A stretch of 64,000 bases of DNA from an uncultured Gammaproteobacteria bacterium (GTDB lineage Bacteria; Patescibacteriota; Microgenomatia; Woykebacterales; RBG-16-39-9b): the NCBI GenBank assembly GCA_965231125.1, contig OZ246414.1, forward strand, positions 576,137-640,136, read 5' to 3'. Positions 1,267 to 31,075 of the stretch are shown one piece after another. Every line of letters begins with the position of its first letter. The stretch's first letter is position 1. A program made the translations under genes and the position numbers. The notes under the pieces are model-generated. The model did not search any database. It was not told where the DNA came from and was given only the letters and a program-made list of their open reading frames with translations.

Positions 1267-1267
1267 A

Positions 1268-2975: not shown

Positions 2976-2982
2976 ATACAAT

Positions 2983-5397: not shown

Positions 5398-5504
5398 GAT
5401 ACTGCTAACAAGGCTGGAACGAGCAATTTTTTGACAAAGACCCCCAAATGTAGTAAATTTTTAGTCCCTGCCTGAAAGCCTGGCCCTAACGAAAGGCGTT
5501 TAAA

Positions 5505-8771: not shown

Positions 8772-8864
8772 CGTCCCCGCGGCATAAGCCGCGGTTGCCG
8801 ACGTTTTCTCACCTTTAAAATCAGGGCTCGAAAATAATTCAAATTCTTGGTATAAATTAATAAG

Positions 8865-10627: not shown

Positions 10628-10785
10628 AGTTGACTCCTTTCGTCATAAATAACGCTCATGATTGCCAATCTAATTACCATCCTTCGATAAACTCAGGATC
10701 GATAAACAAATTGGCAATCACAAGATTTAGGGTTTTCAACTGAATATTTTGTAAAGAGCTTAAGAAGTACAAACAAAGTTTGTAC

Positions 10786-10802
10786 TTCCTCCTAAGAAAA
10801 CC
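10786..10802. repeat. 17-mer TTCCTCCTAAGAAAACC (copy 1), preceded by hairpin AAGTACAAAC-AAAG-TTTGTACTT
   Basis: Exact 17-nt match to 12694-12710. A related CCTTAAGAAAACC occurs at 10197-10209. Confidence 0.6.
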
Positions 10803-10862
10803 TTGGTTCGACTTACTCACCATGAACCAGATTTGCTTAGGAATTCCCGAGAGGTTTCTGCG

Positions 10863-11108
10863 CTAACTCTCGGGATTCGGAGTGCTCTGTTCGACAATCC
10901 TCCAAGCGATTTTGAATGCTGGGCTGTTGTCATACTCTCCTACCGGAAGCCTTTTGACTTCTGGTAGGGTCCTGATCAACAACCAGACTTTTCTATACGC
11001 TTCGGAGAACATGCCGCCTTTTGACGCCTCCAGTACTTGCGGGTTTTCTACTAGAGAAGCTAAAACCGCTCCTTCCCGCTCAGTAAGGTGGAACGCTGTC
11101 ACGTTCAA
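10863..11108 (-). CDS. hypothetical protein
   Basis: 81-aa ORF with no recognised domain, in the GC-richer patch. Confidence 0.3.
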   Translation of the reverse strand: MNVTAFHLTEREGAVLASLVENPQVLEASKGGMFSEAYRKVWLLIRTLPEVKRLPVGEYDNSPAFKIAWRIVEQSTPNPES

Positions 11109-11384
11109 CCTCCTTTCTACCTATAATAGTCGCTTAACAAAAAGCGTCTAGTGAATACTTCGACAAGCTCATCATTCATCAACCGCCTTTATTTGGCAGT
11201 TTTACACTTCATATTATATCACAAATCCAACCGAAAGTCAAATCCTATAAGATATTATGAAAGTTTCAGACTACCGTCTTCAGGTTCAAATATCTTGCGC
11301 TTGAGCAATAGTTATCACTATTATTCTCAAGCTAAGGTCAAGTTAATTGAAGTCAAAGAGGAGTTCTGATATAATTACGCACGT

Positions 11385-11461
11385 GCGGGAGTAGCTCAGT
11401 TGGCTAGAGTGTCTCCCTTCCAAGGAGAAGGTCGCGGGTTCGAATCCCGTCTCCCGCTCCA
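11385..11461 (+). tRNA. tRNA-Gly (anticodon UCC)
   Basis: Fold: GCGGGAG acceptor, anticodon stem TCTCC/GGAGA with loop CTTCCAA, T-arm GCGGGTTCGAATCCCGT, CCA encoded. Confidence 0.85.
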
Positions 11462-11474
11462 AATTATTTAACTT

Positions 11475-11551
11475 GCGCCCATAGCTCAGCGGATTAGAGC
11501 GCGTGGCTTCGGACCACGAGGTCGGGGGTTCGAATCCCTCTGGGCGTGCCA
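11475..11551 (+). tRNA. tRNA-Arg (anticodon UCG)
   Basis: Fold: GCGCCCA acceptor, anticodon stem CGTGG/CCACG with loop CTTCGGA, T-arm GGGGGTTCGAATCCCTC, CCA encoded. Confidence 0.85.
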
Positions 11552-11552
11552 T

Positions 11553-11628
11553 GGTGGTGGTAGCTCAATGGTAGAGCATCAGTTTGTGGAACTGAATGTT
11601 GCGGGTTCGATCCCCGTCCACCACCCCA
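11553..11628 (+). tRNA. tRNA-His (anticodon GUG) with encoded G-1
   Basis: Acceptor GTGGTGG/CCACCAC with an extra 5' G pairing with discriminator C. Anticodon stem TCAGT/ACTGA with loop TTGTGGA. CCA encoded. Confidence 0.85.
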
Positions 11629-11746
11629 CCGAGTCAAATTCGGTTATTTATTGATATAGCAATATAGTTACCACATTAAAGAACATTATTAAAGAACATT
11701 GAATTTTAATCTTTTAATGTGTATAAGATTTAAGATTGTTGTAGTT

Positions 11747-11938
11747 ATGGAAAACGTTACTCTAGAAAAAGAGGTTGAGCTTTTGCGATCCTTCGTAATA
11801 GGTATTGCTGGAAAGGATAAAGAAGGCGAATACAAACCGGAATTTGTTGATAGAGTTTTCCGTGCATTAAAAGAGAAACCAGAATTTAAGTTTACTGGTT
11901 CTAAACCTTTTCTCCACCAATTAGATAAAACCCCTTGA
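11747..11938 (+). CDS. small hypothetical protein
   Basis: 63-aa ORF starting MENVTLEKEVELL, located upstream of the TA pair. No recognised domain. Confidence 0.3.
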   Translation: MENVTLEKEVELLRSFVIGIAGKDKEGEYKPEFVDRVFRALKEKPEFKFTGSKPFLHQLDKTP

Positions 11939-16300: not shown

Positions 16301-18495
16301 GCGGTTGTGAACCTCTTGAAGTCAATCAGGCCACTCCTCAAATTGTGACTGAAATTCATGATGTTTCCGAAGCAATGGTCACCTCAGTCTCACTTGGTAC
16401 AACCGTTCACGACAAAGCCACTGTTACAGGTATTGGAGCAACCGGTTTTGAACCTAGTGGTAATGTTGCCTTTACTTTCTATAACAATGAGGATTGCAAA
16501 GAGGAAGGTTCCGCGGCCGGCACGGTCGCTCTTGATGGAGCAGATCCGGGAACAGCTCATCCGTCCGATCCAGAAGGACCTCTTGCTGCTGGCTCCTATT
16601 CGTTCCAGGCGCACTACGTCGGTGATGATAATTACAAGGAGGCAACTAGCGATTGCGAACCTCTGACCGTAAACAAAGCCCGACTCACTGTTGAAACAAT
16701 AATCCACAACGCATCCCATGATCCGGTTACCTCAGTTCCTCTTGGATCAGTAGTTCACGATACAGCAACAGTCACTGGTGGAGTAGATGGTTTTGCAACT
16801 CCAGGAGTAAGTTTCACTTTCACGAGCAACTATACCAATGATTGTTCTCAGGGAACTCCAGTATCCAACGACGGCACCGATCCTGGTAATGGTGGAGTTA
16901 AGTCAGCTGACAGCGCGGCTTTAGCTGCTGGTGATTATGCTTACCGAGCCAGTGCCGCAAGTGACGAAAACTATATTGGTGACGATTCCGACTGTGAACC
17001 ACTGGCCGTAAATAGGTCTGACACGTCTACTGTCACAGAGGTTCATGATTCGAATCACAACGATATTACTGGTAAATCAGTGCCGCTTGGTTCAATTGTT
17101 CACGACAGTGCAACAGTAGAAACTCAAGTAGATAGTATCGCCATAACAGGAACAGTTAACTACCGCTTTTACACCGACGGCAACTGTGAAGGAAATTTCA
17201 CTGTCAAATCACCGGTAAATGTAGGTGACGAATCAAGCCTAACTAGCGCTCTGGCGGCCGGCTCGTATTCTTACCTAGCAGAATACAGTGGTGATGGCAA
17301 CTACAATTCCTCAACTGGGAAATGTGAACCGTTTTCGGTTGACAAGTCTCAACTTAAGATGGAAAGCAAGGCCCACGATTCAAGCCACAATGACATCACC
17401 AACAGCTCGGTAGCGCTTGGTTCTGTTGTCCACGACACGGCCAAGGTAACCGGTGGAGTAGTCGGTGGGTTTACTCCTCCAGCTATTACGTTTAAATTTT
17501 ATTCCAACGGGAACTGTTCGGACGGTTCTGACGTATCGAATACTGGAGCTGATGGGGGAGACGCGAGCCGCGATCGCTCAGCAGCTTCGTCTGCTCTGGG
17601 CGCTGGTTCTTACTCCTACAAGGCTTTTGTAGCCGACGACAACAACTATCTTGGAACCGACAGCGGCTGCGAACCGTTTACGGTTAACCAAGCCCAGCTG
17701 ACAGTCACCTCCCATGTCCACGACAGCAATGATACAAATATAACTAACAGTTCTGTCGTAGCCGGCTCTATTGTCCACGATCAAGCCTCGGTTAGTGGCG
17801 GTGTTGGTGGTTTTGCGACTCCTACCATCACCTTTACTTTCTTTACTAATGGAACCTGCACGCCCACTGGTTCTGCTGTTAACAATATCGGCACTGATTC
17901 GGGCGGCTCTCGTTCCGCTGACAGTAGCCCCCTAACAGTTGGCAACTATTCCTACAAAGCCAGTATCGCCGGCAACGATAATTACGTTGGTGACGACAGC
18001 GATTGTGAGCCGTTCTCAGTAACCCAACCAGCAACACGGACCCTCGGCTTCTGGCAGACGCACACTGCTTACACCACCTCTGTCTTCAATGCGGCCCCAC
18101 TTAGTGGCTCAATGCTAATTGGAAATGGAGGATCACACAAAGGGCCGGTGGACACTATTGGTAAAATATTCGGTGCTTTCTACTCGAGCATTCCAAAGAA
18201 GACTGATGGCTCAAAACGAACTGACCTTGATAAGGCGCGCATGCAGCTCTTACAACAACTTGTTGCCGCGAAACTCAACTGTGCAGCCTTCGGATGCTCA
18301 GCGGCCACGACTTCTATAATCGCTACCGCTGATGCCGTCTATGCTAGCGGCCCAGCGAGTGCGATTCTTGCCTCTGCAAGCGCCCTCGACGCTTACAACA
18401 ACAGCGGCGACAGTGTACCGGTTGGTGGTACGGGTTCAGCTACCCCAGGCACGTCACAATCTCTTGCCGACAAAGGCTTCTGGAACGCTCCATAA
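13333..18495 (+). CDS. giant secreted/surface tandem-repeat protein (~12 Ig-like repeats of ~115 aa with a conserved Cys pair and CEPF(T/S)V motif)
   Basis: 1720 aa. N-terminal hydrophobic signal anchor followed by a PPPPSPNP linker. Repeats contain HD(T/S)A(T/K)VTGG...F(K/T)FY.N..C...LGAGSYSYKA...NY.G.DS.CEPF.V. The C-terminal ~160 aa form a distinct non-repeat domain. Some repeat pairs share near-identical DNA. Confidence 0.7.
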   Translation: MLTTTKIKPTIRFLLLTLIISAVTLIFLNPISTLSAPPPPSPNPAKFAQCANKNPTAGACDWIGSILQASNSSYFEGMSVPQRIFDGGFGNGAHTIAFSYSYTKGGIHAYDFITGKNQGNGSFTPGITTFNDCQGLTGANLTSCTALIGTLGTLVPIPSDSFDSKDSAPGTGAGSSQTAKETAYGARSISVYNQGTISLTSISAITHNVAADGDTGDSDATLTLNFTLAGCPSGPGDPGCDILIYFDGHLAVGGTDNTTGVNWGPGKGSSNISGGPYHIKDVNLDGGGGSLDNQIKGADILVSPDSPTVTTAIHNDGNHTTDVQNTTIALGSTIHDRATVDNTGGANGTPTGTATFQFFNNGDCSGNPADTSGALTLSSGAVDATGFSKGPLGSGSYSFKAHYTSSDTTKWNSADGLCEHVTVNKSQLAMESKVHNTSHVDKTNSSVPLGSIMHDTAKITGGAVGGFTPSAITFKFYTNNECSGDGTSVTNTGDDEGDATRDRSAASAALGAGSYSYKAFVAGDNNYLGTDSDCEPFTVDKAQLTVTTNVHDAGHADITSGNVPLGSVLHDTATVTGGVGGFTVPTPTFTLTTNYNGDTCDQGDAVANDGTESGATKSADSATLGAGTYAYRASVAGNDNYIGDDSDCEPFTVNQGTLILSTTVHTDNPDEALVGNASLGASLHDSASVGGINADFAPANPVTFKFYNNSDCSGEGTSAGSHAIDTGTGIAHPSDSQGPLAAGPHAFRAFYDGSTDPNYGPDSLKSGCEPFTVDKADTTATTHVHNASHQDITNTAVSLGSKVHDNASVGDQVGSFVITGDITYHFYTNGNCPDESFSDETVAVGSESSETSALGAGDYAYLAEYSGDNNYKGSTGKCEPFSVDKSQLEMESKVHDSDHNVVTSAPLGSIAHDTSKLTGGVVDGFTPPSITFKFYTSGTCDGNGTSVNNAGADGGDATRDRSDASSSLGAGSYSYRAFVAGDNNYLGTDSGCEPLEVNQATPQIVTEIHDVSEAMVTSVSLGTTVHDKATVTGIGATGFEPSGNVAFTFYNNEDCKEEGSAAGTVALDGADPGTAHPSDPEGPLAAGSYSFQAHYVGDDNYKEATSDCEPLTVNKARLTVETIIHNASHDPVTSVPLGSVVHDTATVTGGVDGFATPGVSFTFTSNYTNDCSQGTPVSNDGTDPGNGGVKSADSAALAAGDYAYRASAASDENYIGDDSDCEPLAVNRSDTSTVTEVHDSNHNDITGKSVPLGSIVHDSATVETQVDSIAITGTVNYRFYTDGNCEGNFTVKSPVNVGDESSLTSALAAGSYSYLAEYSGDGNYNSSTGKCEPFSVDKSQLKMESKAHDSSHNDITNSSVALGSVVHDTAKVTGGVVGGFTPPAITFKFYSNGNCSDGSDVSNTGADGGDASRDRSAASSALGAGSYSYKAFVADDNNYLGTDSGCEPFTVNQAQLTVTSHVHDSNDTNITNSSVVAGSIVHDQASVSGGVGGFATPTITFTFFTNGTCTPTGSAVNNIGTDSGGSRSADSSPLTVGNYSYKASIAGNDNYVGDDSDCEPFSVTQPATRTLGFWQTHTAYTTSVFNAAPLSGSMLIGNGGSHKGPVDTIGKIFGAFYSSIPKKTDGSKRTDLDKARMQLLQQLVAAKLNCAAFGCSAATTSIIATADAVYASGPASAILASASALDAYNNSGDSVPVGGTGSATPGTSQSLADKGFWNAP

Positions 18496-18511
18496 ATTGA
18501 AGGCGTGGGTT

Positions 18512-19084
18512 TTAAGTCAAATTTGTTTGGGAAATATCGGAGAGGAGAACACCTTCAACTATTAGTCCTTTGGGTCCCAGTTCGGCTTCCAAAAGCTCCT
18601 TAATCTTTCTTTCTGCGTCGTGCCGAGCCGTAGAATTTAACTCTTGATAAGTAAACTCACTTGTCGCGGTGCGGACACGGCTTCGGGAAACTGGTCGGAT
18701 GATTTTTGATACAAAATGCTCGCCAATATTTTCCCAAAGCCCCACAATACTATCTTTATTTATCCGCACTAAAATTGTGCCTTCGATAGTTATACTAATG
18801 TTGTCCCGTGTGGTCCCGGTAATTGGGTCGTCTCCTAAAAACTCTTTGTTTTCGTCAGCGTTAAAATCCTGCCGAATAGTGTACTCAAGAGTTTGCGAGT
18901 TAAAAATTTTTGCTTTTTGCCAGAAGGGGATTTTGAAATGCAAACCAGGGCCCCAGGTGTGCCTTAGCACCCCTCGGCCGCGGTCGTACACAGTGGCGAT
19001 GTGCCCCGGGGCAACGTCAACAAAAAAGCCGCCAGCGACTTCATCTACCAAAAAAGAGATAACTAATTTATCAAATGATGCCAT
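18512..19084 (-). CDS. SPFH/band-7 (prohibitin/flotillin-like) domain protein
   Basis: 190 aa with an SPFH-like core. Lies directly downstream of yidC on the minus strand. Confidence 0.55.
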   Translation of the reverse strand: MASFDKLVISFLVDEVAGGFFVDVAPGHIATVYDRGRGVLRHTWGPGLHFKIPFWQKAKIFNSQTLEYTIRQDFNADENKEFLGDDPITGTTRDNISITIEGTILVRINKDSIVGLWENIGEHFVSKIIRPVSRSRVRTATSEFTYQELNSTARHDAERKIKELLEAELGPKGLIVEGVLLSDISQTNLT

Positions 19085-19960: not shown

Positions 19961-20215
19961 GATAAATTTTTTGGGCCGAGGGCGGGAATCGAAAGCTTCG
20001 CATTCTGCGTCTTCCAGACTATGAACCCGCAAGGTGGTGCCACCAACGGATTTAAAGAATCTATATAAATTCTTGCGCATTTTGGTGGACCTCACGAATT
20101 TGGCTTGGAACTCGCTGGTCCAAAACCTAAAACAATATCAATTCCTAACTACCTTACCTTATTTTGAGGCTAAATACAACTATAAATCTAACTACCAGAC
20201 TTTATTAGAAACTAA

Positions 20216-20911
20216 CTAATCGAGGAATTTGAAGGTTGAGACTATTTGATCAAGAATTTTATCAGCTTCTGTGTCTTTTTCTTTCCATTCACCATATATA
20301 AGGAAACTTGTTCCATTTACACTCAGTTGTATTGTAGAATAAGTTGGTACGGATGTAGTAGGTTTAGACCCATTCTCACTTAAGTTAATTAAAATCCAAT
20401 AACTCTTTTTGCTTGAAATTCCAGAAACTATTACATCTACTTCTTTTGGTTCGGAGTAAGAACCAATAAAACTTCCACGTCTAATTACTTTAAGGATCCT
20501 ATTGTTTGCCGAATCTTGTAAGATAATCTCAGGCTCTTGGTTGCTTTGGCTAATATAACCTGTCCCTTCTTTATACTCACCAACATACACTCCTTTATCG
20601 TCCTCACTAACAGTCCAGTTGGAAGGATATTTCAAACTTAAATTAACTAGTTTCCCCTCGTAGGTTTTCCAATCAGCAGTTTCGTCTTTGGTTGCTGGTG
20701 GTGAAGTTTGGGGTGCTGGGTTAGCCGAGGAAGTACTTGTCTTGGTAGTTGTGGGAGTTGATTCTTTCGGTTTAGCTTGATAAGCGTTGTAGACAAGAAA
20801 GCCTCCACCTACCAAAGTGGCACCTACAACAACACCGATAAGGATATTTTTCCAATTGATTCCTTGAGACATTTGCTGATTTGGATTTGACTGGGTAGGA
20901 ATTTCAGGCAT
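20216..20911 (-). CDS. membrane-anchored hypothetical protein (TM segment, Thr/Pro-rich linker, beta-rich C-terminal domain)
   Basis: 231-aa ORF with a single N-terminal TM helix and a low-complexity linker TPTTTKTSTSSANPAPQTSPP. Confidence 0.4.
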   Translation of the reverse strand: MPEIPTQSNPNQQMSQGINWKNILIGVVVGATLVGGGFLVYNAYQAKPKESTPTTTKTSTSSANPAPQTSPPATKDETADWKTYEGKLVNLSLKYPSNWTVSEDDKGVYVGEYKEGTGYISQSNQEPEIILQDSANNRILKVIRRGSFIGSYSEPKEVDVIVSGISSKKSYWILINLSENGSKPTTSVPTYSTIQLSVNGTSFLIYGEWKEKDTEADKILDQIVSTFKFLD

Positions 20912-21051
20912 TAAGTTTAATATAAAGGTTAGGTTGCTGGGTTGTCAACAATTGTTGTTACGTTACTCAAAAAGCGACCTAAATCCGAGTTTTTGCTTTC
21001 GTTAGTGTAAAGGACTTTGCGAACCTGACTCCTTTATGTTTTGCAAAGGAT

Positions 21052-21702
21052 TTGGCTATAATTAAAGTAATGATTGATGATGGGGTAGCAAACAAAGAAA
21101 AGGCTCGTTCAGAGGGGCTTAGGAAGGCACTCGAGGTTAAGATGTCCCAGTTTCCGACAATTACCCACGCTTCCCCTCACAAAGAGGAGATTGACAACTG
21201 GATTATTGAAAAGAGATGGAGTAGCCGAGCTATTGTAAACGAGCTGTACTCAAAGTATCCAAATGAAACTCACCCTAGCCCTGTCTCAGTTGATAACTAT
21301 CGCAAGAAATACTTAGACCAAAATCCTGATGTTGGTTCCATTATGAGAAGTGGCAGCCGAGAGCTTGCCAACAAGTTCCTCGCCCTCGGTGAGGATTACT
21401 ACAGCTTTACCAAAAACGTGGTGACGCTTAACAAAAACACCTATGAAAGAGCGAATATCGGAGCTGACGAGGAAATAGCTAGTGGTCTGCAATCAGAGCT
21501 GAGAAGTAAGTCGATCAGAGACTATGTTGAAGTTAGTAAACTTTTGGTGGTGGTTATGCAAACTGTCGGTATACCTCGACCAATCGAGGAGGCGTTAGAT
21601 ACGGCAGAAGTCGAGGTAGTTAAAAATGACATTGATTGGGAAAAAAGGTTAGATGAGATAAAAACTGTTTTTGAAAAGTCAGCTAAACGTGGTTACACGT
21701 AG
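21052..21702 (+). CDS. hypothetical protein (possible HTH-containing, mobile-element associated)
   Basis: 216-aa ORF upstream of recombinase 1. No confident domain; the start is uncertain. Confidence 0.3.
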   Translation: MAIIKVMIDDGVANKEKARSEGLRKALEVKMSQFPTITHASPHKEEIDNWIIEKRWSSRAIVNELYSKYPNETHPSPVSVDNYRKKYLDQNPDVGSIMRSGSRELANKFLALGEDYYSFTKNVVTLNKNTYERANIGADEEIASGLQSELRSKSIRDYVEVSKLLVVVMQTVGIPRPIEEALDTAEVEVVKNDIDWEKRLDEIKTVFEKSAKRGYT

Positions 21703-21815
21703 ATTTCCCCCAAAGGTACAGCTAATCCAGAAAAGATGAGATCAGAGAGTGGTATTTCTTGCATATTGCTTATTTGTTGTGTTAATCTAAGTGTAGAAAA
21801 CTTAATAGCCCCATA

Positions 21816-21898
21816 AGATAGATAAATTCCTTTAGATAAAATTCCATAGATAAATTTCGGACATAACTGTCCTTGAGATAAATTGATCGTTAGATCAC
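21816..21898. repeat. iteron-like direct repeats (AGATAGATAAATTCC / TTTAGATAAAATTCC / ATAGATAAATTTCGG / GAGATAAATTGATCG)
   Basis: Three tandem 15-bp units plus a fourth after a 14-bp gap. They lie upstream of recombinase 1. Confidence 0.45.
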
Positions 21899-21981
21899 TT
21901 AAACTCTGGGGCAGTTTTTTTGTTGCAAAATTTCACTCGGGTTGAAATCTGCGGCTTCCCGAGTGGCCGCAGTTTTTAGTT

Positions 21982-22170
21982 ATGATGAGCTTATCAAGAG
22001 CAAGAAAAATACTAGGTAAAAAGTACTCTCACTTAACAAATGAGGAAATCGAAATGTTGCTGACTAAAACCTATCCCTTGGCTGATATGGTAACCAACCT
22101 GATTGCTAAAAAGGTGTTCGAAAGTCGCGTTAGGATTATTGACTCTGAGAAGGGAAGGACAGATGATTAA
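21982..22170 (+). CDS. small hypothetical ORF immediately upstream of the recombinase (candidate accessory/directionality factor)
   Basis: 62-aa ORF preceded by an 8-bp-stem hairpin CACTCGGG...CCCGAGTG. Speculative. Confidence 0.25.
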   Translation: MMSLSRARKILGKKYSHLTNEEIEMLLTKTYPLADMVTNLIAKKVFESRVRIIDSEKGRTDD

Positions 22171-23797
22171 GCCTGAAGGCAAAAAGATGAAAGCAATAAT
22201 CTACTGTCGGGTTTCCACCGAGGAACAAGTTAAGGGCTATAGCTTGGATTTCCAAGAAAAACAGAGCCTAGAATACGCTGAAAGAAACGGATTTGAAGTA
22301 TTGAAGGTTTTTGTTGAGGAAGGAGAATCAGCCAAAGTTATCAGTCGGACTAAGTTAACTGAACTTCTCAATTTTTGCAAGGAAAACATAGGTCAAATTG
22401 ATGTTCTAATCGTCCACAAGTTAGATAGATTTGCCCGAAACCAACAAGACCACCAAGCCATAAGGGCGATACTTGCTCAATATGGCGTAATACTTCGTTC
22501 CGCCACCGAACCAATAGACGATACGCCCGTAGGGAAACTTATGGAAAATTTCCTCTCCTCTATTGCTCAATTTGATAATGATATTAGGGCTGAAAGAGTA
22601 ACTCTTGGTATGAAGGAGAAGCTAAAACAGGGTTTGTGGGCCTTTGTGGCCCCCTTAGGCTATAAAAACGTGGTTGTCAACAAAGTTAGTACCATTGTTC
22701 CTGATGAAAAGATTGCACATTTAATTAAAAGGCTATTTGAGGAGTATGCAACTGGTTTACATACCTATGAAAGTTTAGCTAATTTTATGACTAAGCTCGG
22801 TCTTAGGACTAAAAAAGGAAGTAAATTGTCTAAACAGACAATACAAAAGATTTTAGTTAATAAACTTTATGTCGGGATTATAGATGTTCCAAGTTTGGAC
22901 ATTGTAGACATTGAAGGAAAATTTGAGGCTATTATCAGCAAGGACCCTTTTTATAAAGTACAGCGTTTAAGAGAAGGTAAGGGATTTACCCAAGAACATA
23001 GGCTTAGAATACACCCAGATTTTATCCTGAGACGCTCTTTACTTTGTCCAAAATGCCGAAAGTCTCTTACAGGTAGTTGGTCAAAAGGCAAAAGTAAAAG
23101 ATACGCCTATTATCACTGCACAACAAAGGGTTGTCCACTAAGATCAATACCTAAGAAGGACATTGATAAGACTTTTCTGGCCCTGCTCAAGGCGACTAAA
23201 CCTACAGGCGAATATATAAAGCTCTTTAAGGAAGTTGTAAGGGAAGTTTGGCAAAAGAAGTATGATGAGAAGTTCAAAGAGGTTAAAAGATTGGAGTATG
23301 AGTTGGCACAGATTAGGGAGCTGAAAGACGCCCTAATTGAACAAAACGCTAAAAGGGTACTTGAGGACAATGATTTCAAGGAGAAAATTAGGAAAGTTAA
23401 TGATGAAATTGCTCACAAAGAATTGGTAAGAAACGAAGCTAGAACAGATGAGGTAGATATAGAATTGGTCTTAAACCTTGCCGAAACAATACTTACAAAC
23501 GTCTCCATTATTTGGTTAGAAGCTCCCTTGGAACACAAAGTGAGGTTTCAACAGCTTCTTTACCCGAAAGGTGTGATCTATAACAACGGAGTTATTGGAA
23601 CTCTGGAATTAGGTTTACCATTCAAGATAATTAGCGAAGCTCGTGGTGAAAAGTCTGAAATGGTGGGCAAGGGGGGACTCGAACCCCCAAGGCTTTACAG
23701 CCAACGGATTTTAAGTCCGTCGCGTATACCAGTTCCGCCACTCGCCCCAAAATTGCTAAATCCCGTTGCGTATACCACTAGCTTACAAACCGATTGA
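22163..23797 (+). CDS. large serine recombinase (resolvase catalytic domain + recombinase domain + zinc-ribbon)
   Basis: N-terminus AIIYCRVSTEEQ with catalytic Ser. GGAAGG SD-like sequence before ATG 22163 (an alternative ATG is at 22187). CxxC...C Zn-ribbon region. The 3' ~135 nt of the ORF overlap tRNA-Leu on the opposite strand. Confidence 0.8.
   Translation: MIKPEGKKMKAIIYCRVSTEEQVKGYSLDFQEKQSLEYAERNGFEVLKVFVEEGESAKVISRTKLTELLNFCKENIGQIDVLIVHKLDRFARNQQDHQAIRAILAQYGVILRSATEPIDDTPVGKLMENFLSSIAQFDNDIRAERVTLGMKEKLKQGLWAFVAPLGYKNVVVNKVSTIVPDEKIAHLIKRLFEEYATGLHTYESLANFMTKLGLRTKKGSKLSKQTIQKILVNKLYVGIIDVPSLDIVDIEGKFEAIISKDPFYKVQRLREGKGFTQEHRLRIHPDFILRRSLLCPKCRKSLTGSWSKGKSKRYAYYHCTTKGCPLRSIPKKDIDKTFLALLKATKPTGEYIKLFKEVVREVWQKKYDEKFKEVKRLEYELAQIRELKDALIEQNAKRVLEDNDFKEKIRKVNDEIAHKELVRNEARTDEVDIELVLNLAETILTNVSIIWLEAPLEHKVRFQQLLYPKGVIYNNGVIGTLELGLPFKIISEARGEKSEMVGKGGLEPPRLYSQRILSPSRIPVPPLAPKLLNPVAYTTSLQTD
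23661..23747 (-). tRNA. tRNA-Leu (anticodon UAA), long variable arm
   Basis: Fold: GGGCGAG/CTTGCCC acceptor (one G-T pair), anticodon stem ACGGA/TCCGT with loop CTTAAAA, long variable arm, T-arm GGGGGTTCGAGTCCCCC, CCA encoded. It lies entirely inside the 3' end of the recombinase ORF on the other strand. Confidence 0.8.
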
Positions 23798-23911
23798 AAT
23801 TATACTTTTTTTAAGCCCGAATATCAATAAGTTGAAGAGCTTAAGAATTTTTAGTACATCTTGACGCACTCTGCCAACAGCTGTTATGCTTTTAATATAA
23901 ATTTCTTTTCA

Positions 23912-25243
23912 ATGTCCAAGGTAGATTTAAGAAAGAACCTAATCAGTATAATTGGTATAGTAATACTCTTTATCCTCATTGTAATTACTGTAGTAAGCGC
24001 TCTAAATACAAAAGGTAACGTAATTTCATCACCCAACATTGGTGCCTCACAAACCTATGTCCCGTCGCTAGCTGGGCCGTGTTGGCCGCTTGGAAATGCA
24101 GTTAAGGACAACGTTTTAAGTGATAGGGATGCTGTAGCAATATTAGACCATATCGCCGGAATTAATTCATACTCTTCACTCTGGGACCGCCTCAGTGCCG
24201 ATGTTAATGTTGATGGCCAAATTACTGCGGTTGATGTAGCGTTAATTAGACAATACTTAGCAGGTAGGATCAACACTTTTCCTGGATGCCACACACTAGC
24301 TGCGTCGGTCAGACAACTGCATTTTCCCTATGTTTTGCTTTCCGGTACAAGCGGGATGACATTACGTGCGCCTATTACAATTAACGGCGGTGATATCATT
24401 TCACCTGGTATTCTTAATTGTGATGCTACGGCCTTCTCCCCCAGCATCTGTACCGCCAACTTAGGGGAAGTTATATTCGCACGCGAAACTCTAGGTGAAG
24501 GAGGTCAGCAGACTACTTGGGGCGGATCGTCTCAAATTCTCCAAAAAACAACCACAAGAGTCATATACGCCTTCCCCTTGCCAGATGATAACCGCAATCC
24601 ATATAATCCATTTGGAACATATTGGAAAGCTCAAGCTGAAGCTGGTGGTACGTTGCAGGATTTTACCTGTGACGGGAAGGTAAGCTTAGGACCAATATAC
24701 ATTAGTAGAAGGATGACCCTTAAAACAGGTTGTAAATTAACCGTAACGGGCCCAATTTGGGTAAATGAACGAGTCGACATGCAAACAGGATCGGTAATTA
24801 AGCTTTCGAAAACCTGCTCTGCAAGTACAGTTTTTGTTTCTGGAGCGCGAGAAGTGAGTCCAGGCAGGTTAGGCTCTCCCCTTCCATTTCGTACCATCCA
24901 CTATCCGAACCCAAGAGCCGGCCATAATTTTCATATTTTTGCGACGGGGACTCGCCCCAATAAGTACATACTTTTCATAAATTACAGTAAAGGGCAGCCT
25001 GCCTTTGATTTAGATGGTGCAAATTACACGGCAGACAACGTTTACCAAGGAATATTTTATGCTCCAAACGGAACAATTAAGGTGGCTAATCAGTTTGGTT
25101 ACTCTATTGCCCACAAAGCCACTTTCACCGGTGCTCTCTACGCAAATTTTTACAGAGGTGCGGATAGTCTCAATATTGGTGCAGGAACTGTCATCAACTA
25201 CCCAAACAACATTAATAGTCTGTCTCTATCTAACTGTAAGTAA
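23912..25243 (+). CDS. secreted hypothetical protein with one dockerin-like Ca-binding repeat
   Basis: Signal anchor IISIIGIVILFILIVITVV. DVNVDGQITAVDVALIRQYLAG resembles a dockerin / EF-hand-like repeat. The C-terminal part looks beta-helix-like with G/T/N-rich repeats. An alternative start is at 23861. Confidence 0.45.
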   Translation: MSKVDLRKNLISIIGIVILFILIVITVVSALNTKGNVISSPNIGASQTYVPSLAGPCWPLGNAVKDNVLSDRDAVAILDHIAGINSYSSLWDRLSADVNVDGQITAVDVALIRQYLAGRINTFPGCHTLAASVRQLHFPYVLLSGTSGMTLRAPITINGGDIISPGILNCDATAFSPSICTANLGEVIFARETLGEGGQQTTWGGSSQILQKTTTRVIYAFPLPDDNRNPYNPFGTYWKAQAEAGGTLQDFTCDGKVSLGPIYISRRMTLKTGCKLTVTGPIWVNERVDMQTGSVIKLSKTCSASTVFVSGAREVSPGRLGSPLPFRTIHYPNPRAGHNFHIFATGTRPNKYILFINYSKGQPAFDLDGANYTADNVYQGIFYAPNGTIKVANQFGYSIAHKATFTGALYANFYRGADSLNIGAGTVINYPNNINSLSLSNCK

Positions 25244-25370: not shown

Positions 25371-26006
25371 CTAGCTAAGTTTAAACAAATCAACTAGTGA
25401 AGTACCGCGAGCTTTAAAGTTACCGTACTGTTTATTCTTTTGATGAAGAGCTGCTGTAGATGCATTACTTTTTCTAAAAAACTCTTTATCTTTGAAGGCC
25501 AAATTGACCGGACAAGCACCTTGACCTTTGACAAAAACAGAATTTCGTAGCTCACAACACATTTCATCAAATTTATCAAAGTTTTCATCAGTAAACCCCA
25601 AAGTTACGATTTTACCTTTGTTAAGCTCTCCCATAACCCCTTTCTCGTCAAAATATCTAAATTTGTAAGCTTTGTATAGAACTTCCAACAAACCTTGATA
25701 GTGCTTTAAGGGCTTGAGGGTTAGGTTGTTCTCTTTCATAGTGGGTTCAATTATCTTAAAGATCTCTACTAGAATATGCTTATCTTCGATTTTCAGTTCT
25801 TTTATGGTTTTTTCATCAAAAAGCTCGTAAATTTTTAACTTCAAATACTGCTCCGCTGCTTGCTCTGCAATTGCTATCCCGGGTATTCGGAAGTTATTTA
25901 AGAGTAAAGAACGGGCTGCTAGGTAGTTACTATCCGCGAAAAAAAGGTAATTTTCTCTGGCAAAAAGGTTGTTTTGCAACATATTTTCGACCCGACTCTC
26001 AGGCAT
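25371..26006 (-). CDS. hypothetical protein (211 aa)
   Basis: Clean ORF with no confident domain. Located in the inter-recombinase island. Confidence 0.4.
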   Translation of the reverse strand: MPESRVENMLQNNLFARENYLFFADSNYLAARSLLLNNFRIPGIAIAEQAAEQYLKLKIYELFDEKTIKELKIEDKHILVEIFKIIEPTMKENNLTLKPLKHYQGLLEVLYKAYKFRYFDEKGVMGELNKGKIVTLGFTDENFDKFDEMCCELRNSVFVKGQGACPVNLAFKDKEFFRKSNASTAALHQKNKQYGNFKARGTSLVDLFKLS

Positions 26007-26009
26007 GGT

Positions 26010-26258
26010 TTAAAAATGGGGAATTCCAATACCTTCTGGGGGACCCAAAGCCCACCTATATATAAAAACCTGAATGACTACCCAAACAATATAACCTAAC
26101 ACTGATTCTTTCAGTTCATCTTCTGCAATTAGTATTGGGGCCGCAAGCCAAAAAGTATAAAAAATTATTAATAACATTTTTACCCAATCCCCATCGCCAA
26201 TCAACCATAAAGCAATAAAGAAAGAAAGAAATAGAAAAAATAATTTACTAATGTTCAT
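26010..26258 (-). CDS. small membrane protein
   Basis: 82 aa with two predicted TM helices. Confidence 0.3.
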   Translation of the reverse strand: MNISKLFFLFLSFFIALWLIGDGDWVKMLLIIFYTFWLAAPILIAEDELKESVLGYIVWVVIQVFIYRWALGPPEGIGIPHF

Positions 26259-26346
26259 AATATATATTTGTTTATATTAAATCCCTTCCATGTTAATAAG
26301 TCATGCACATCTTGGCTGAGAATGTAGGTCAATACCACAACTGTCG

Positions 26347-26829
26347 TTATAATTGACAGAATCTGGAAATTAAGAAAATAACATATAGTATGGCTATCAT
26401 TAATATCAAAACGTAAGAAGCCCCCGCGGTTCGTGGCCAACCAACTATTTTATTCTTCTTTTCGTTTCCCTTGGCAATAGGATCTAACTGGCTAACTTTT
26501 TTTGAATCTGCACCCTCCAACAAATGTTCTTCTTCTATTTCTCTTGCCGAATCAATCCAATGATCAATCCATTGAAACCCACGAAGAGTCATAGTAAACC
26601 ACAAGTAGCATGATATCAGTCCGGCAATTGGAAGAAAAGTTATAACTATCGAGGGGAATGGATCCTTATATGTAAAGCCAATGGCTGCTATAAGAATGGA
26701 ATTAAAAACTAATAAAGCGTTATATCTACTCCACAAAATCTCACTTTCAGAAGTATTCTTGTTAATAGCAATTTGATACTTAGCCACGGATTTTTCAATT
26801 CTCTCTTTATCAGTATCCATATGTTGCAA
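26347..26829 (-). CDS. membrane protein, hypothetical
   Basis: 160 aa with three or four hydrophobic helices. Confidence 0.4.
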   Translation of the reverse strand: MQHMDTDKERIEKSVAKYQIAINKNTSESEILWSRYNALLVFNSILIAAIGFTYKDPFPSIVITFLPIAGLISCYLWFTMTLRGFQWIDHWIDSAREIEEEHLLEGADSKKVSQLDPIAKGNEKKNKIVGWPRTAGASYVLILMIAILYVIFLISRFCQL

Positions 26830-26861: not shown

Positions 26862-26933
26862 TACCGAAATTATACCAAACAGTTTTCTGGAAGACAAGCG
26901 TGTGGTTTCAGAGGTGCACAATCTGGCTGGCGG

Positions 26934-27027
26934 TTTACGAAAAATGTCGAACTTCATTTGATTAGCTCGGCCTTCGGCCTCGCTTGCTCCAGCGCGGCGA
27001 CCCCACCCGCCGCGCCCCCGCTATTTT
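26934..27027 (+). repeat. GC-rich structured repeat, A part (copy 1, forward)
   Basis: 94-bp exact inverted match to 29176-29269. Contains a GGCC-TTCG-GGCC hairpin and a GCGCGGCG...CGCCGCGC hairpin. Confidence 0.8.
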
Positions 27028-27060
27028 TTGCGCGCGCGATTTTCTCGCCCTTCGGGCGAG

Positions 27061-27585
27061 CTAGGGTTTAAGCAATTTAATTACGCCGTCTACTCCTAGC
27101 TTTAGCACCGCAAGATTTGCAAGTTTATTTCCCTCTTGCTCATGGGAATAAAATTTTGGATTAAATGCTGTATGAATAACTCTTTCGAGATATTTAAAAT
27201 GATCATCTTCGCTCATAGTTATTGCAGCAACTGAATGCCCATGTAAGATTGGCAGAAAAAGCTCTAGGTTATTTGCTACTATACCGTCTCTTTCTTCACC
27301 AAATTTACCTTCTGGTGCAAATGGATAAGCATATTCTTCAAATGCGATGTTCTTGTTTTGAAGAAAACTTTTTGCTTTCGTCAAACATTCTTCTTTTGTA
27401 ATTCTGAAAATAATTTCTGGCTCAAAGAAAAAATGAAATTTTGGATCATCTTTGAGTGTGTGGTCGTATAGTTCTTTAACCAACGCTTTTAATTTTGGAA
27501 CATCACTAGTATTGACAGCGTTACCATTCAAAATTGGTACATAATTTTTTATATGTATAGTTTTAATATCCATATATATTTTCAA
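27061..27585 (-). CDS. hypothetical protein (cargo gene 1)
   Basis: 174-aa ORF whose stop abuts repeat A. No recognised domain. Confidence 0.4.
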   Translation of the reverse strand: MKIYMDIKTIHIKNYVPILNGNAVNTSDVPKLKALVKELYDHTLKDDPKFHFFFEPEIIFRITKEECLTKAKSFLQNKNIAFEEYAYPFAPEGKFGEERDGIVANNLELFLPILHGHSVAAITMSEDDHFKYLERVIHTAFNPKFYSHEQEGNKLANLAVLKLGVDGVIKLLKP

Positions 27586-27657
27586 GAGACATAATAGATT
27601 TCATGCTATTCCTAGTTTCCTAGGATTAACAATGGAAAAGTGCCAATAAGTGTAAAC

Positions 27658-28107
27658 TTATTTTGAAAGAAGATCTTTAATTCTTTTTTCTATTTCCTCG
27701 CGTTTGATCTTTTCCAGTTTCGCCTCGTTTCTAACAGCTTTTAGGCCTTCACCTCTTAACGTGTCAGAATCTAATATACTTGCCTTCATCCTACAATAAT
27801 CCGCATATAAGGAAGAATTGTAATCTTGCCAATCGTCTTGAATTCGTTGCAAGATTTTTTTGTCAAATTTATATCTTTCAATACTCCTTGCATAATCATC
27901 AACAAAGCTACGCAAGTCCTTTAATTCTTTAGACCACATTTCTACGTCTTGTTTGTAAATCTTAGTGTCCTCTTTCGAGTTATCGGGATCTTCTGAGTCC
28001 TTTTTTGCTCGCTCTATGTATTCTTCTAGTTCTTTTTCAGTAACTTGATACCAATATTTGTTGATGTCGTCTGGATTTTCAAATGGTCCGAATATTCCGT
28101 CGGTCAT
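27658..28107 (-). CDS. coiled-coil hypothetical protein (cargo gene 2)
   Basis: 149 aa, highly charged, predicted coiled coil. Confidence 0.4.
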   Translation of the reverse strand: MTDGIFGPFENPDDINKYWYQVTEKELEEYIERAKKDSEDPDNSKEDTKIYKQDVEMWSKELKDLRSFVDDYARSIERYKFDKKILQRIQDDWQDYNSSLYADYCRMKASILDSDTLRGEGLKAVRNEAKLEKIKREEIEKRIKDLLSK

Positions 28108-28172
28108 ATTACTCGTATTCTATCAATTTTTTCACAAAATTACTATAGAAATAGATAGTATCTCGCAAACCC

Positions 28173-28200
28173 TTGACACAAAAGAAAAACTATTTATAAT
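28173..28200 (+). promoter_or_regulatory. sigma70-like promoter (TTGACA-16-TATAAT)
   Basis: Sits in the divergent intergenic region and would drive cargo gene 3. Confidence 0.5.
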
Positions 28201-28237
28201 TGGTTCAAATATATACCTCTACGACTTGAAAGTAACT

Positions 28238-29101
28238 ATGACCAAAGATGAAGTTATAAATAAACTTAAAGAGTTAGCTATTAAATTACATACTCCTCGA
28301 TTAAGGCAGAAGGATATTCGATCAGTTAAAAGATTGGAATATTACATTTCAATTCATTTTAAGAAACTTGCACCTGCATTAAAAGCTGCCGGCCTGGACC
28401 CTACACCCTTAGCTGTCAAAATGAGCATTTCTGATAAAGAGTTACTTAGTTATCTTTTGGGGCTTGGAAAGAAAATTGGAAAAAAGCCGACTGTTATGGA
28501 CGTCAAGAGGGATGGTAGGTTTTCAGAAAAAATTTTTAAGAGGTTTGGGAATATCAAAAAGGCTTATGAACTAGCAACTAACGAATCCAAATCACAAACA
28601 ACCAAAGATGACAAAGAAGTATATTTAGTAGAATTTCCAAACAGACCAGTATTTTGGGGAAGGGCAGCAGAAATGTACATCGTAGCCGAGTTGATGTATC
28701 GAGGTTATAACTCAAGTCTTTTACCGGTTGATTTAGGAGTGGATGTCATTGCAATCAAAGATAGCAAAACTTTCTATTTCCAGGTTAAAAATATTTCTTT
28801 CGATAAAGTAGCAAGTAGAACTATTCCAATTACAACTAGTTCCTTCTCAAAAAATCAAAGCAGCAATATGTTCTATGTTTTTGTACTTCAACGCGGCCAA
28901 GGGAAAAATGTTCTTTTTCTTCCTTATCAGAAGATGCACGAACTCATTAACAAAAGCCTTATTTTGTTTAATAAAGAGAATAAAGATTTTTCGATATGTA
29001 TCTCTTTGAATGACAAGGTAGTAAATATTCATACACCCTCAGAAAGAACCAAGTTCGAAGACGTCTCTAGTTATCTTGATGATTGGGATGTAATTGTTTA
29101 A
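28238..29101 (+). CDS. hypothetical protein with possible PD-(D/E)xK nuclease-like C-terminal region (cargo gene 3)
   Basis: Start at ATG 28238 downstream of the promoter (the 6-frame ORF extends further upstream to 28058). VDLGVDVIAIKD...FYFQVKN resembles a D...(D/E)xK nuclease core. Weak evidence. Confidence 0.35.
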   Translation: MTKDEVINKLKELAIKLHTPRLRQKDIRSVKRLEYYISIHFKKLAPALKAAGLDPTPLAVKMSISDKELLSYLLGLGKKIGKKPTVMDVKRDGRFSEKIFKRFGNIKKAYELATNESKSQTTKDDKEVYLVEFPNRPVFWGRAAEMYIVAELMYRGYNSSLLPVDLGVDVIAIKDSKTFYFQVKNISFDKVASRTIPITTSSFSKNQSSNMFYVFVLQRGQGKNVLFLPYQKMHELINKSLILFNKENKDFSICISLNDKVVNIHTPSERTKFEDVSSYLDDWDVIV

Positions 29102-29175
29102 GTTCTTTAAAATTTTTGCGTTTTTTTCTTTTTAATCCCGATTTCATCGGGATTGTTCGAGCCGACAGTTTGGGA

Positions 29176-29388
29176 GGCGCGGCGGGTGGGGTCGCCGCGC
29201 TGGAGCAAGCGAGGCCGAAGGCCGAGCTAATCAAATGAAGTTCGACATTTTTCGTAAACCGCCAGCCAGTAAAGAGAAGAAAGAGGTTGGGAGGTAGCGC
29301 TTTCCGCGCCTTTACCCTGAGGAACGTAGGGCGCCTCCGCGGAAAGCGCGTCAAATCCGCCTTTTTTGAAACTTGCGGACAGCCGCCG
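29176..29388 (-). repeat. GC-rich structured repeat, complete unit B+A (copy 2, inverted)
   Basis: 29176-29269 is the reverse complement of A (26934-27027). 29262-29388 is the reverse complement of B (30883-31007). Contains a 12-bp perfect stem GCGCTTTCCGCG...CGCGGAAAGCGC. Confidence 0.8.
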
Positions 29389-29486
29389 TAAAAAGAAGGA
29401 AGAAAAACGCAAAAAATTGTGCTTCTTGAAAGAAGCCCTGCTCACTATCGTTCGCTTAAAGAACTTTTAAGAGATAAGATAGAAAT

Positions 29487-31016
29487 ATGATTAAATATAT
29501 CGCATATTGCAGAAAATCAACAGATGAACCGGACAGACAAATTTTGTCTATTGAGGCACAAGTTGCAGAACTTGAGGAATTCGCCGCAAAGGAGAATTTA
29601 AAAATAGTTTCTTTCATTACTGAGAGTAAAACTGCCAAAGAGCCAGGAAGACAAAAATTTGCGGAGGTTTTGGAAAAGATAGAAAACGGCGTAGCCGCCG
29701 GTATCATCTCATGGCATCCAGACAGACTTGCAAGAAATTCTGTTGATGGCGGAAAGATTATCTACTTATTGGATACCGGAAAATTACTTGATTTAAAATT
29801 TCCCAGTTTCTGGTTTGAGAATACTCCGCAAGGTAAATTTATGCTTAATATTGCTTTTGGTCAAAGCAAATATTATGTGGATAATCTTTCCGAAAATGTA
29901 AAACGAGGCAATCGCCAAAAACTTCGTCGCGGTGAGTGGCCTAACCAAGCGCAATTTGGCTATCTAAACATTAACAAGAAAATAGAGGTTGATAAGAAAC
30001 GAGCCAAGTATGTGCAACAAGCTTTCCAGCTTTTTGCTACCGGCGGCTATGGATTTGCTGACATCCGCAAATTTTTCAACGAAAACAAAATTTTCAATAA
30101 GTCCGGCCACGAACTTCATTTGGATAAAGTCAAAAGAATTCTGACTGATCCGTTTTACTACGGAGTAATGAGATTTTGCGGCGAACTTTACGAAGGAAAA
30201 CAGGAACCGCTAATATCCAAGAAACTTTTTGATAAGTGCCAAGAAGTAGTCAAACGCAAAAGCCGCAAGGTTAAAAATAACAAACACCTTTTTGATTTTC
30301 TAGGTTTGATTAAGTGTGGCGAATGTAGCGGCGCAATTACGGCGGAAAAACACACTAAGTATTACAAGCGAACTAATAGAACCGCTGAATATATTTACTA
30401 TCGTTGTTCCAAGAAAAAAGGTGCTTGCTCGCAAAAATATATTGAAAAGGTAGAAATTGAAAAGCAATTAAGGGAAAATGTTTTGCGAGCATCTTTGCCG
30501 CCGTTCGCCGCCAAAAAGTTTCTTGAGTGGGCCGATAAAGACGCAAACGAGGAAAAACAGAAATCTTCCGGTATTGTTTTGACCTATCAACTTCAACTCA
30601 AAGAAACAGAAGAAAAGACAGACCGTTTGCTTGAGGGATATCTCGATAAGATAATTAGTTCAGAAGATTACCAAAAGAAGAAAAACGAATTAGTAGAATC
30701 AAAGTCGCTTCTTAACTCCAAAATCAAGGATATTTTCCAAAACGGCGCTGAGTGGCTCGAACCTTTCCAAGAATTCGTAAATAGTGCGCTATCAGCGCAC
30801 AAAATCGCGCGCGCAAAAAATAGTTGCCATGATTTATCTATCATGGCAAAAACTGTCGGCTCGAACTTCTTTTTAATGGATCGGCGGCTGTCCGCAAGTT
30901 TCAAAAAAGGCGGATTTGACGCGCTTTCCGCGGAGGCGCCCTACGTTCCTCAGGGTAAAGGCGCGGAAAGCGCTACCTCCCAACCTCTTTCTTCTCTTTA
31001 CTGGCTGCCGGGCTAG
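29487..31016 (+). CDS. large serine recombinase (resolvase domain + recombinase domain + zinc-ribbon)
   Basis: N-terminus IAYCRKSTDEPDRQ with catalytic Ser. Cys-rich region CGEC...C...C. The last ~44 codons are encoded by repeat B, and the stop codon lies inside the 3' end of tRNA-Gln. Confidence 0.8.
   Translation: MIKYIAYCRKSTDEPDRQILSIEAQVAELEEFAAKENLKIVSFITESKTAKEPGRQKFAEVLEKIENGVAAGIISWHPDRLARNSVDGGKIIYLLDTGKLLDLKFPSFWFENTPQGKFMLNIAFGQSKYYVDNLSENVKRGNRQKLRRGEWPNQAQFGYLNINKKIEVDKKRAKYVQQAFQLFATGGYGFADIRKFFNENKIFNKSGHELHLDKVKRILTDPFYYGVMRFCGELYEGKQEPLISKKLFDKCQEVVKRKSRKVKNNKHLFDFLGLIKCGECSGAITAEKHTKYYKRTNRTAEYIYYRCSKKKGACSQKYIEKVEIEKQLRENVLRASLPPFAAKKFLEWADKDANEEKQKSSGIVLTYQLQLKETEEKTDRLLEGYLDKIISSEDYQKKKNELVESKSLLNSKIKDIFQNGAEWLEPFQEFVNSALSAHKIARAKNSCHDLSIMAKTVGSNFFLMDRRLSASFKKGGFDALSAEAPYVPQGKGAESATSQPLSSLYWLPG
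30883..31007 (+). repeat. GC-rich structured repeat, B part (copy 3, forward), fused to the tRNA-Gln 3' end
   Basis: 125-bp exact inverted match to 29262-29388. It ends in CTGGCTG, which also forms the discriminator+CCA of tRNA-Gln on the other strand. Confidence 0.8.
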
Positions 31017-31075
31017 GATTCGAACCTAGATAACAGGCTTCAAAGGCCCGTGTCCTACCGTTAGACGACCCGGCA
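31002..31075 (-). tRNA. tRNA-Gln (anticodon UUG)
   Basis: Fold: TGCCGGG/CCCGGCA acceptor, 3-bp D-stem, anticodon stem CGGGC/GCCTG with loop CTTTGAA, T-arm CTAGGTTCGAATCCTAG, discriminator G, CCA encoded. Confidence 0.75.

Follow-up and report, generated by a model that had tools for sequence, protein, structure and literature searches.

The window analysed here, 64,000 nucleotides (nt) of contig OZ246414.1 (assembly GCA_965231125.1) from an uncultured bacterium, carries three small genes at 27061-29101 that raise a simple question: do they work together as one system, or are they separate passengers of a mobile element? The genes are named after their products of 287, 149 and 174 amino acids (aa) as p287, p149 and p174, and they lie next to a large serine recombinase gene (rec2) and a tRNA-Gln gene. 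An earlier note on this DNA had proposed them as one three-gene defence or accessory system carried between inverted repeats. From the analysis presented here, it is fairly probable that the three genes occupy the cargo compartment of a tRNA-Gln island that rec2 mobilises, that p287 is the gene of a sequence-specific autonomous endonuclease, and that p149 and p174 are a facultative pair.

In the mechanism that we propose, 26923-31001 would be a 4.1-kb integrative island at the 3' end of tRNA-Gln(ttg), belonging to a family of small large-serine-recombinase islands in Microgenomates (named relatives are Levybacteria and Woesebacteria), and the three genes would be variable, separately shuffled cargo modules, not one machine. 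p287 would be a selfish or accessory gene of the homing-endonuclease type with its own consensus promoter and an I-Ssp6803I-like catalytic domain; its product may make a sequence-specific double-strand cut and thereby promote the spread or retention of the gene in tRNA-linked islands. p149 and p174 would be co-oriented cargo that can be present or absent, and the inverted repeats (module A) would be attachment-site arms, the left one at the normal distal end and the right one in an internal inverted attP-like junction by the recombinase promoter.

Distribution of the three genes

The three open reading frames (ORFs) are present at 27061-27585 (minus strand), 27658-28107 (minus strand) and 28238-29101 (plus strand), and all of them are under purifying selection, with ratios of nonsynonymous to synonymous substitution (dN/dS) of 0.06-0.20 against homologues. 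Clustered at 90% identity, the homologues in public data amount to 54 clusters for p174, 27 for p149 and 28 for p287; the few with an organism name are from Levybacteria and Woesebacteria, and one partial match is labelled Chloroflexota.

About 20 distinct loci (numbered L001 and so on), which were found by searching with p287, p149 and p174 themselves, were compared. The trio occurs together only in contigs that are 99-100% identical to the window and come from the same organism (L012-L014), so the check on co-occurrence in other genomes went against the one-system proposal. The closest distinct island, L010, has the same layout without p287 (identities of 87% for rec2, 88% for p149 and 91% for p174), L015 from Levybacteria has p149 at 94% identity without p174 and p287, and p287 homologues of 44-76% identity are found without the other two in L001, L004/L020, L019, L021, L022, L039 and L040. 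In total, components of the trio stand apart from each other in L001, L004, L007, L010, L011, L015, L019, L025, L034 and L037. The cargo in representative loci is as follows (287, 149 and 174 denote the three genes of the window and their homologues).

Window: 287 + 149 + 174
L010: 149 + 174
L034: 158-aa + 149 + 151-aa
L015: 220-aa, 132-aa, then 149 and 200-aa
L019: 377-aa + 287
L001: 287 + four other genes
L011: 204-aa, 181-aa, 174

Searches for defence functions gave the same picture. PADLOC returned 0 matches for six proteins (the three cassette products and those of the 211-aa, 160-aa and 82-aa ORFs to the left), and no defence-family match was obtained for the cassette proteins with PADLOC, PHROGs or NCBIfam. 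Among the neighbours, Pfam recognises a recombinase, a membrane protein of the 8xMP family and a dockerin-like protein, and tRNA genes lie next to them; this is not the content of a defence island. That the three genes make up one novel anti-phage, abortive-infection or addiction system is now highly improbable: the genes are compact, divergent and beside a recombinase on a low-GC island, one product has a predicted nuclease fold and all are under selection, but the trio is limited to near-identical copies of one locus, its members occur without each other in L010, L015 and the p287 loci, and neither a family match nor a known defence gene nearby was found by Pfam or PADLOC. A false lead is hereby removed, as the trio is not a new defence system.

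Anatomy of the tRNA-Gln island

The other part of the earlier proposal, namely that the genes are mobile-element cargo beside a large serine recombinase at a tRNA locus, is supported. The features of the island are listed below.

26923-27019, plus strand: module A, left copy; non-coding distal boundary of the tRNA-Gln island, inverted repeat with 29172-29269
27021-27043, plus strand: Q1'; its reverse complement recurs exactly at 30801-30823, within rec2
27044-27060, plus strand: GC hairpin; follows Q1' and abuts the p174 stop codon
27061-27573 (ORF to 27585), minus strand: p174 gene; product most likely 170 aa
27658-28107, minus strand: p149 gene; acidic, helical product
28136-29099, plus strand: p287 promoter and ORF as a presence/absence unit; blastn breakpoints against L010 and L015
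28173-28200, plus strand: p287 promoter; sigma-70-type TTGACA-16-TATAAT, 12/12 positions
28238-29101, plus strand: p287 gene; two HNH_repeat units, linker, predicted C-terminal PD-(D/E)xK nuclease domain
29110-29418, plus strand: internal inverted module between cargo and recombinase promoter; parts are Uc' 29110-29125, hairpin 29134-29154, Q2' 29155-29171, A' 29172-29269, B 29259-29388 and Uc 29403-29418
29487-31016, plus strand: rec2; large serine recombinase of 509 aa with Resolvase, Recombinase and Zn_ribbon_recom domains
30801-30866: Q1-pal-Q2; within the 3' end of rec2
30882-31011: module B, tRNA-proximal copy; within the 3' end of rec2
31002-31075, minus strand: tRNA-Gln(ttg); putative integration target and proximal island boundary

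Two features expected of a large-serine-recombinase island are found here, the recombinase domain set at one end and a putative tRNA-Gln target with boundary repeats, and the same arrangement of tRNA-Gln and recombinase is seen in L010, L015, L024 and L034. The end of the rec2 ORF falls inside the antisense of tRNA-Gln, and the region 30780-30880 just before it is strongly structured (folding z -3.9). Both large serine recombinase ORFs of the window, rec2 and a second one termed rec1, run into tRNA antisense (31002-31016 in tRNA-Gln(ttg) and 23661-23797 in tRNA-Leu(taa)), and the tRNA side supplies the stop codon of both; L010, L025 and L031 show such overlaps as well, and in relatives they are also seen at tRNA-Tyr and tRNA-Asn. 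This suggests that the attachment site is at the extreme 3' end of the recombinase gene.

The inverted repeats themselves, 26923-27019 and 29172/3-29269, are real (97-98 nt, 99% identity, with no further copy in the window), but, contrary to what had been thought, they do not delimit a cassette-carrying unit: the left copy is the distal end of the island and the right copy is part of an internal junction. This becomes clear from the simple island in L034, which reads tRNA-Gln, B, x-Q2'-pal-Q1', recombinase (antisense), three cargo genes, hairpin-Q1, A' and chromosome. The window and L010 have all parts of the simple island and, in addition, the internal A'-B module, the parts of which are also present in L015. 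Module A is found at the distal island end in L010, L034/L024, L001 and L019 with 91-97% identity, and the Q1'-hairpin unit of 40 nt (27021-27060) is 97.5-100% identical in L001, L010 and L015. Since left A, Q1' and the hairpin (26923-27060) together make up the distal end, the island spans 26923-31001. Module B, the stretch of about 130 nt that directly follows tRNA-Gln and whose antisense encodes the recombinase C-terminus, is conserved at this position in the window, L010, L015, L011 and L019.

The outer end of module A (reverse complement ...GTTCGACATTTTTCGTAAACCGCCAGCCAG; …GTTCGACATTTTTCGTAAACCGCCAGC[C]A) mimics the T-loop and acceptor 3' end of tRNA-Gln, as can be seen when the distal A' end, CCGCCAGCCAG, is set against the tRNA 3' end, CCGGCAGCCAG. 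In L001, a recombinase-less island of 4.07 kb is flanked by exact direct copies, 20 nt long, of the 3' end of tRNA-Gln, while no such repeat beyond the 11-16 nt at the A' ends was found in the window. Because A' joins B exactly where tRNA-Gln joins B, the internal joint is attP-like, and such an internal inverted attP-like joint is, as far as we can judge, new. In L015, a two-gene insertion (2727-4026, with ORFs of 132 and 220 aa) lies exactly at the A'-B joint and has its own pseudo-tRNA 3' end (GTTCGAACTTCTTCCCAGTGTGACAGCCAG), which is evidence that the internal joint serves as a secondary attachment site.

Across genomes, modules A, Q1, pal, Q2 and B are 91-100% identical, whereas the synonymous divergence (dS) of the genes ranges from 0.36 to >2. 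Such high identity is as expected of sites bound by the recombinase, and the non-coding modules are probably protein-bound recombination or attachment sites. Other explanations for module A did not hold. As an RNA gene, it had no match in Rfam and folded no better than shuffled sequences (z -1.1 and -0.05), and as a coding region, the few substitutions between the window and L019 were nearly all amino-acid-changing. An in-frame insertion of 21 nt is shared by the two B copies of the window but missing from L010, L015 and L011; this implies that the inverted copies have undergone gene conversion.

Judging from this anatomy, the island would be capable of excision and integration, and its closest known counterparts are elements of the staphylococcal cassette chromosome (SCC/SCCmec) type and other large-serine-recombinase elements (Ccr, XisF, phage serine integrases), which have the same recombinase domain set as rec2. 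The best NCBIfam similarities of rec2 are to XisF, CcrB and CcrA, at 93 bits against an equivalog cut-off of 375. Like the SCC-type elements, the tRNA-Gln island is at the 3' end of a conserved gene and carries variable cargo, and the recombinase-less L001 and L019 as well as the L015 insertion at the att-like site resemble composite or pseudo-SCC arrays. It differs from SCC in its tRNA-Gln target, in the recombinase ORF that runs into the tRNA, in the inverted internal attP-like copy and in its host from the candidate phyla radiation. A literature search on serine-recombinase islands of the candidate phyla radiation gave nothing relevant. The parts of the locus are of known kinds (a relative of PD-(D/E)xK homing endonucleases, an integrative island with a large serine recombinase, and orphan cargo). 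Little has been described of the mobile elements of uncultivated Microgenomates, and the value of the present description is that it makes a family of their small integrative islands concrete. In addition, the conserved attachment modules would offer a tractable system for the targeting of tRNA genes by serine recombinases.

The p287 protein and its gene

Although none of the three proteins had been thought to show a recognisable family signature, p287 matches the Pfam family HNH_repeat (PF18780, 'homing endonuclease associated repeat') with 41 bits against a cut-off of 26 (E 2.5e-10), and the repeat was found in 17/17 family members tested. The protein consists of a helical region with two HNH_repeat units (aa 1-120), a disordered linker (aa 119-136) and an alpha/beta nuclease domain (aa 136-287), and it is basic (isoelectric point, pI, 9.6) with dN/dS of 0.07-0.10. 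In the AlphaFold2 model built on the family alignment (mean predicted local distance difference test score, pLDDT, 81.7), the C-terminal half is predicted to be a nuclease-fold domain with the alpha-beta-beta-beta-alpha-beta core of the PD-(D/E)xK superfamily, in line with the fold expected earlier. The weak D...(D/E)xK core that had been noticed in the sequence also gained weight: E145, E151, D165, D169, K174, Q182, V183 and K184 are invariant across the family, and in the model D169 and Q182-x-K184 are on consecutive strands, as expected for the fold. In place of the usual Asp or Glu before x-K, the family has an invariant Gln (Q182-V-K184). Judging from the conservation, p287 would be an active nuclease, and it may also be sequence-specific.

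The best structural match to the C-terminal domain is the homing endonuclease I-Ssp6803I (PDB 2OST), with 15% sequence identity and no match to it in sequence or profile searches; against the PDB as a whole, these searches gave no significant match for p287. PHROGs gave two weak matches of unknown function and NCBIfam nothing useful for any of the three proteins. I-Ssp6803I is the PD-(D/E)xK enzyme of a Synechocystis tRNA-fMet group I intron, whereas p287 is free-standing with its own promoter and has about 120 aa of extra N-terminal HNH_repeat units. The enzyme is described as a tetramer with a 23-bp pseudo-palindromic target and mostly cyanobacterial close homologues, and PD-(D/E)xK relatives among homing endonucleases are so far known mainly from cyanobacterial introns (PMC3384342). 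The archaeal resolvase Hjc and the type II restriction enzymes NhoI and PvuII are without the N-terminal repeat domain of p287 and are found in other genomic contexts. With regard to Hjc, serine recombinases make no Holliday junctions that need resolution. The fusion of HNH_repeat units to an I-Ssp6803I-like domain, free-standing beside tRNA genes in bacteria of the candidate phyla radiation, appears to be new. p287 represents a rare nuclease type, and if it is sequence-specific, the family could be a possible source of new nucleases with long targets.

The gene itself behaves as a separate unit. The canonical promoter ascribed to it is indeed there, TTGACA-16-TATAAT at 28173-28200 with a 12/12 match, and comparison with L010 and L015 by blastn places the breakpoints of the indel at 28136 and 29099 with conserved flanks on both sides, so that the homologous DNA of these islands differs at one position by the presence or absence of a compact gene. 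In L019, the p287 homologue retains promoter and 3' flank (AAGTTCTTTAAAATTTTTGCG) next to a different upstream neighbour, and the gene and its promoter appear to move together. p287 lies beside a tRNA or tRNA-like junction in five of eight distinct loci; a true 3' end of tRNA-Gln or tRNA-Asn adjoins the homologues in L001, L004, L019 and L021 at a distance of 51-289 nt, and in the window the tRNA-like A'-B joint is 168 nt away. This pattern fits a free-standing gene of the homing-endonuclease type that rides in, or helps to spread, tRNA-linked islands.

Similar behaviour is known from the free-standing homing endonuclease genes of phages (T4 seg and mob), which are, like p287, units of promoter and ORF between other genes and show presence/absence polymorphism among otherwise collinear relatives. 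The enzymes of the T4 seg/mob type are GIY-YIG or HNH nucleases in phage genomes, whereas p287 is of the PD-(D/E)xK type and is encoded on a bacterial chromosome, in an island of an uncultivated host; in the viral contigs of IMG/VR, no relatives of p287, p149 or p174 were found with the family alignments.

In L010 and L015, about 155 bp with a pseudoknotted structured element stand in place of 28136-29099, and the p287-less allele contains a long pseudo-palindrome. The element, which was sought by a descriptor search, is about 90 nt long followed by a U-run (L010 5928-6011, L015 4200-4286 and L025 2362-2439, all on the minus strand), is absent from the window, and occupies the exact p287 position in the relatives; in L025, the start codon of the recombinase follows the element at a distance of about 45 nt. 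It has helices of 9, 8-9 and 12-13 bp, the third of which pairs a hairpin loop with downstream sequence. No helix contains a mismatch in any of the three versions; compensatory changes are numerous, and G.U pairs are confined to one strand. No match was found in Rfam, and the element is a candidate for a new island-linked RNA motif or for the insertion target site of p287.

The p149-p174 pair, rival readings and surroundings

The two minus-strand genes are co-oriented with a gap of 84 nt. The ORF of p174 is real, but its start is most likely the internal Met at the fifth codon, as in homologues and deposited gene calls, giving a product of 170 aa (27061-27573) instead of the 174 aa first assigned. 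In the protein, the N-terminal half is of the alpha/beta type and the C-terminal half is helical, and invariant His, Glu and Arg residues suggest an enzyme. An exhaustive profile search gave 215 clusters at 50% identity, most of them stand-alone proteins of 150-190 aa, and domain fusions are limited to two distant glycosyltransferase fusions, which are uninformative. Foldseek against the PDB returned generic ferredoxin-like matches, none of them significant. A weak lead is the resemblance to the glutamate-elimination domain of LanB dehydratases and thiopeptide pyridine synthases (MibB 5EHK, PbtD 5W98); p174 is about half the size of this domain, no peptide-maturation genes are nearby, and neither Pfam nor PDB profile searches matched p174 to the lanthipeptide-dehydratase family. 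p149 is acidic (pI 5.0), 44% charged and helical or coiled-coil-like, and it has only generic coiled-coil matches, all below threshold, which gives no family assignment, and one weak PHROG of unknown function. Sequence and profile searches of the PDB gave no significant match for either protein.

In a profile scan of all ORFs of the fetched loci, p149 and p174 are adjacent in 3/7 distinct p149 loci and in 3/6 distinct p174 loci, and one of these pairs sits chromosomally between dnaG and pyrG. They form a recurring but facultative co-oriented pair. Elsewhere, p174 homologues are part of a prophage-like block (L007), follow a gene for a prolyl isomerase (L037) or have an unrelated 181-aa partner (L011). 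The 181-aa partners in L007 and L011 were considered as divergent p149 and rejected (hhalign probability 1%, BLASTP not significant), and they are unrelated to each other as well. The L007 block, at 64-11854 of a Woesebacteria contig, contains genes for a small terminase subunit, a helix-turn-helix regulator, a Dcm methylase, an HNH protein and a Vsr protein. Its ends are a 717-aa ORF combining a recombinase and a Mg-chelatase domain and a 353-aa ChlI/Mg-chelatase ORF, an arrangement that would fit insertion into a Mg-chelatase-type gene.

Could the cargo genes have other roles than those proposed? It is doubtful that p149 and p174 are a functional two-gene module, either a toxin-antitoxin or addiction pair or, for p149, a recombinase accessory or directionality factor. 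Their close spacing and the retention of adjacency in three distinct contexts, including the dnaG-pyrG site, speak for such a module, as does the presence of a rec2-family recombinase or remnant within about 5 kb at tRNA-Gln, tRNA-Tyr or tRNA-Asn in those p149 loci with enough flank. However, p149 is without p174 in 4/7 loci and p174 without p149 in 3/6, the alternative partners of p174 are unrelated, the association of p149 with recombinases is confounded by the way in which the loci were found, and no toxin, antitoxin or directionality-factor family was matched; for a type II toxin-antitoxin pair in particular, adjacency is not obligate. We likewise regard it as unlikely that p287 is a stand-alone nuclease for defence or competition of the island, cutting phage, rival islands or unoccupied attachment sites, rather than a selfish homing gene. 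It has no adjacent methyltransferase or immunity partner, PADLOC gave no match, and both its best structural match and the name of its N-terminal repeats point to homing endonucleases.

A different kind of explanation, which we consider quite improbable, is that the cassette is an invertible or exchangeable segment with the nested repeats as recombinase sites, by which the recombinase C-terminus could be switched. Five nested inverted repeat pairs flank the cassette (A/A', Q1'/Q1, Q2'/Q2, B/B' and Uc'/Uc), the order in L015 is the expected product of a Q1'/Q1 inversion with the cassette reversed relative to tRNA-Gln, the L015 insertion is exactly at the A'-B joint, and the modules are far more conserved than synonymous sites. 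On the other hand, each genome shows a single arrangement, and the only example of the opposite orientation comes from another genome, L015; short-read contigs break inside A. Large serine integrases normally recombine attP with attB, not identical inverted sites, and the rearrangements may be rare evolutionary accidents. It is similarly a long shot that the tRNA-Gln locus is a platform for cassette capture by serine recombinases, in which cassettes are inserted, inverted and exchanged via the A'-B joint and modules A, Q1, pal, Q2 and B. If this were true, the trio would be one snapshot of a shuffling array, and a nuclease of the p287 type may drive the spread of cassettes or islands by cutting unoccupied sites.

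Several points weigh against the preferred reading of an island with a homing-type nuclease gene and a facultative pair as separate cargo. The sample of loci is biased because they were found with the same proteins. The Gln at the middle catalytic position (QxK) means that the activity of p287 is argued from conservation only. Its indel may reflect deletion or replacement in the relatives, not insertion in the window. The occurrence of the p149-p174 pair in three different contexts may indicate a real functional link, and, as far as sequence analysis alone can tell, any single cassette gene may have a role in defence.

A second island of the same kind is present at 20023-23660 with rec1, a 231-aa secreted-looking protein and a 216-aa protein; its distal repeat is a partial copy of tRNA-Leu (20023-20057), and the distance from tRNA-Pro(tgg) to tRNA-Leu(taa) is 3.7 kb in the window against 83 nt in L034. 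The DNA between the two islands (23861-25243) encodes a protein of 460 aa that carries a dockerin type I repeat and, in its N-terminal part, a hydrophobic segment. Just outside the tRNA-Gln island, at 25371-26829, there are three minus-strand genes; the product of 160 aa belongs to the 8xMP octameric membrane protein family (PF24838), that of 82 aa is also a membrane protein, and that of 211 aa has no family. Further upstream, the GC content at 14000-19000 is 0.48-0.49, compared with about 0.41 elsewhere in the window.

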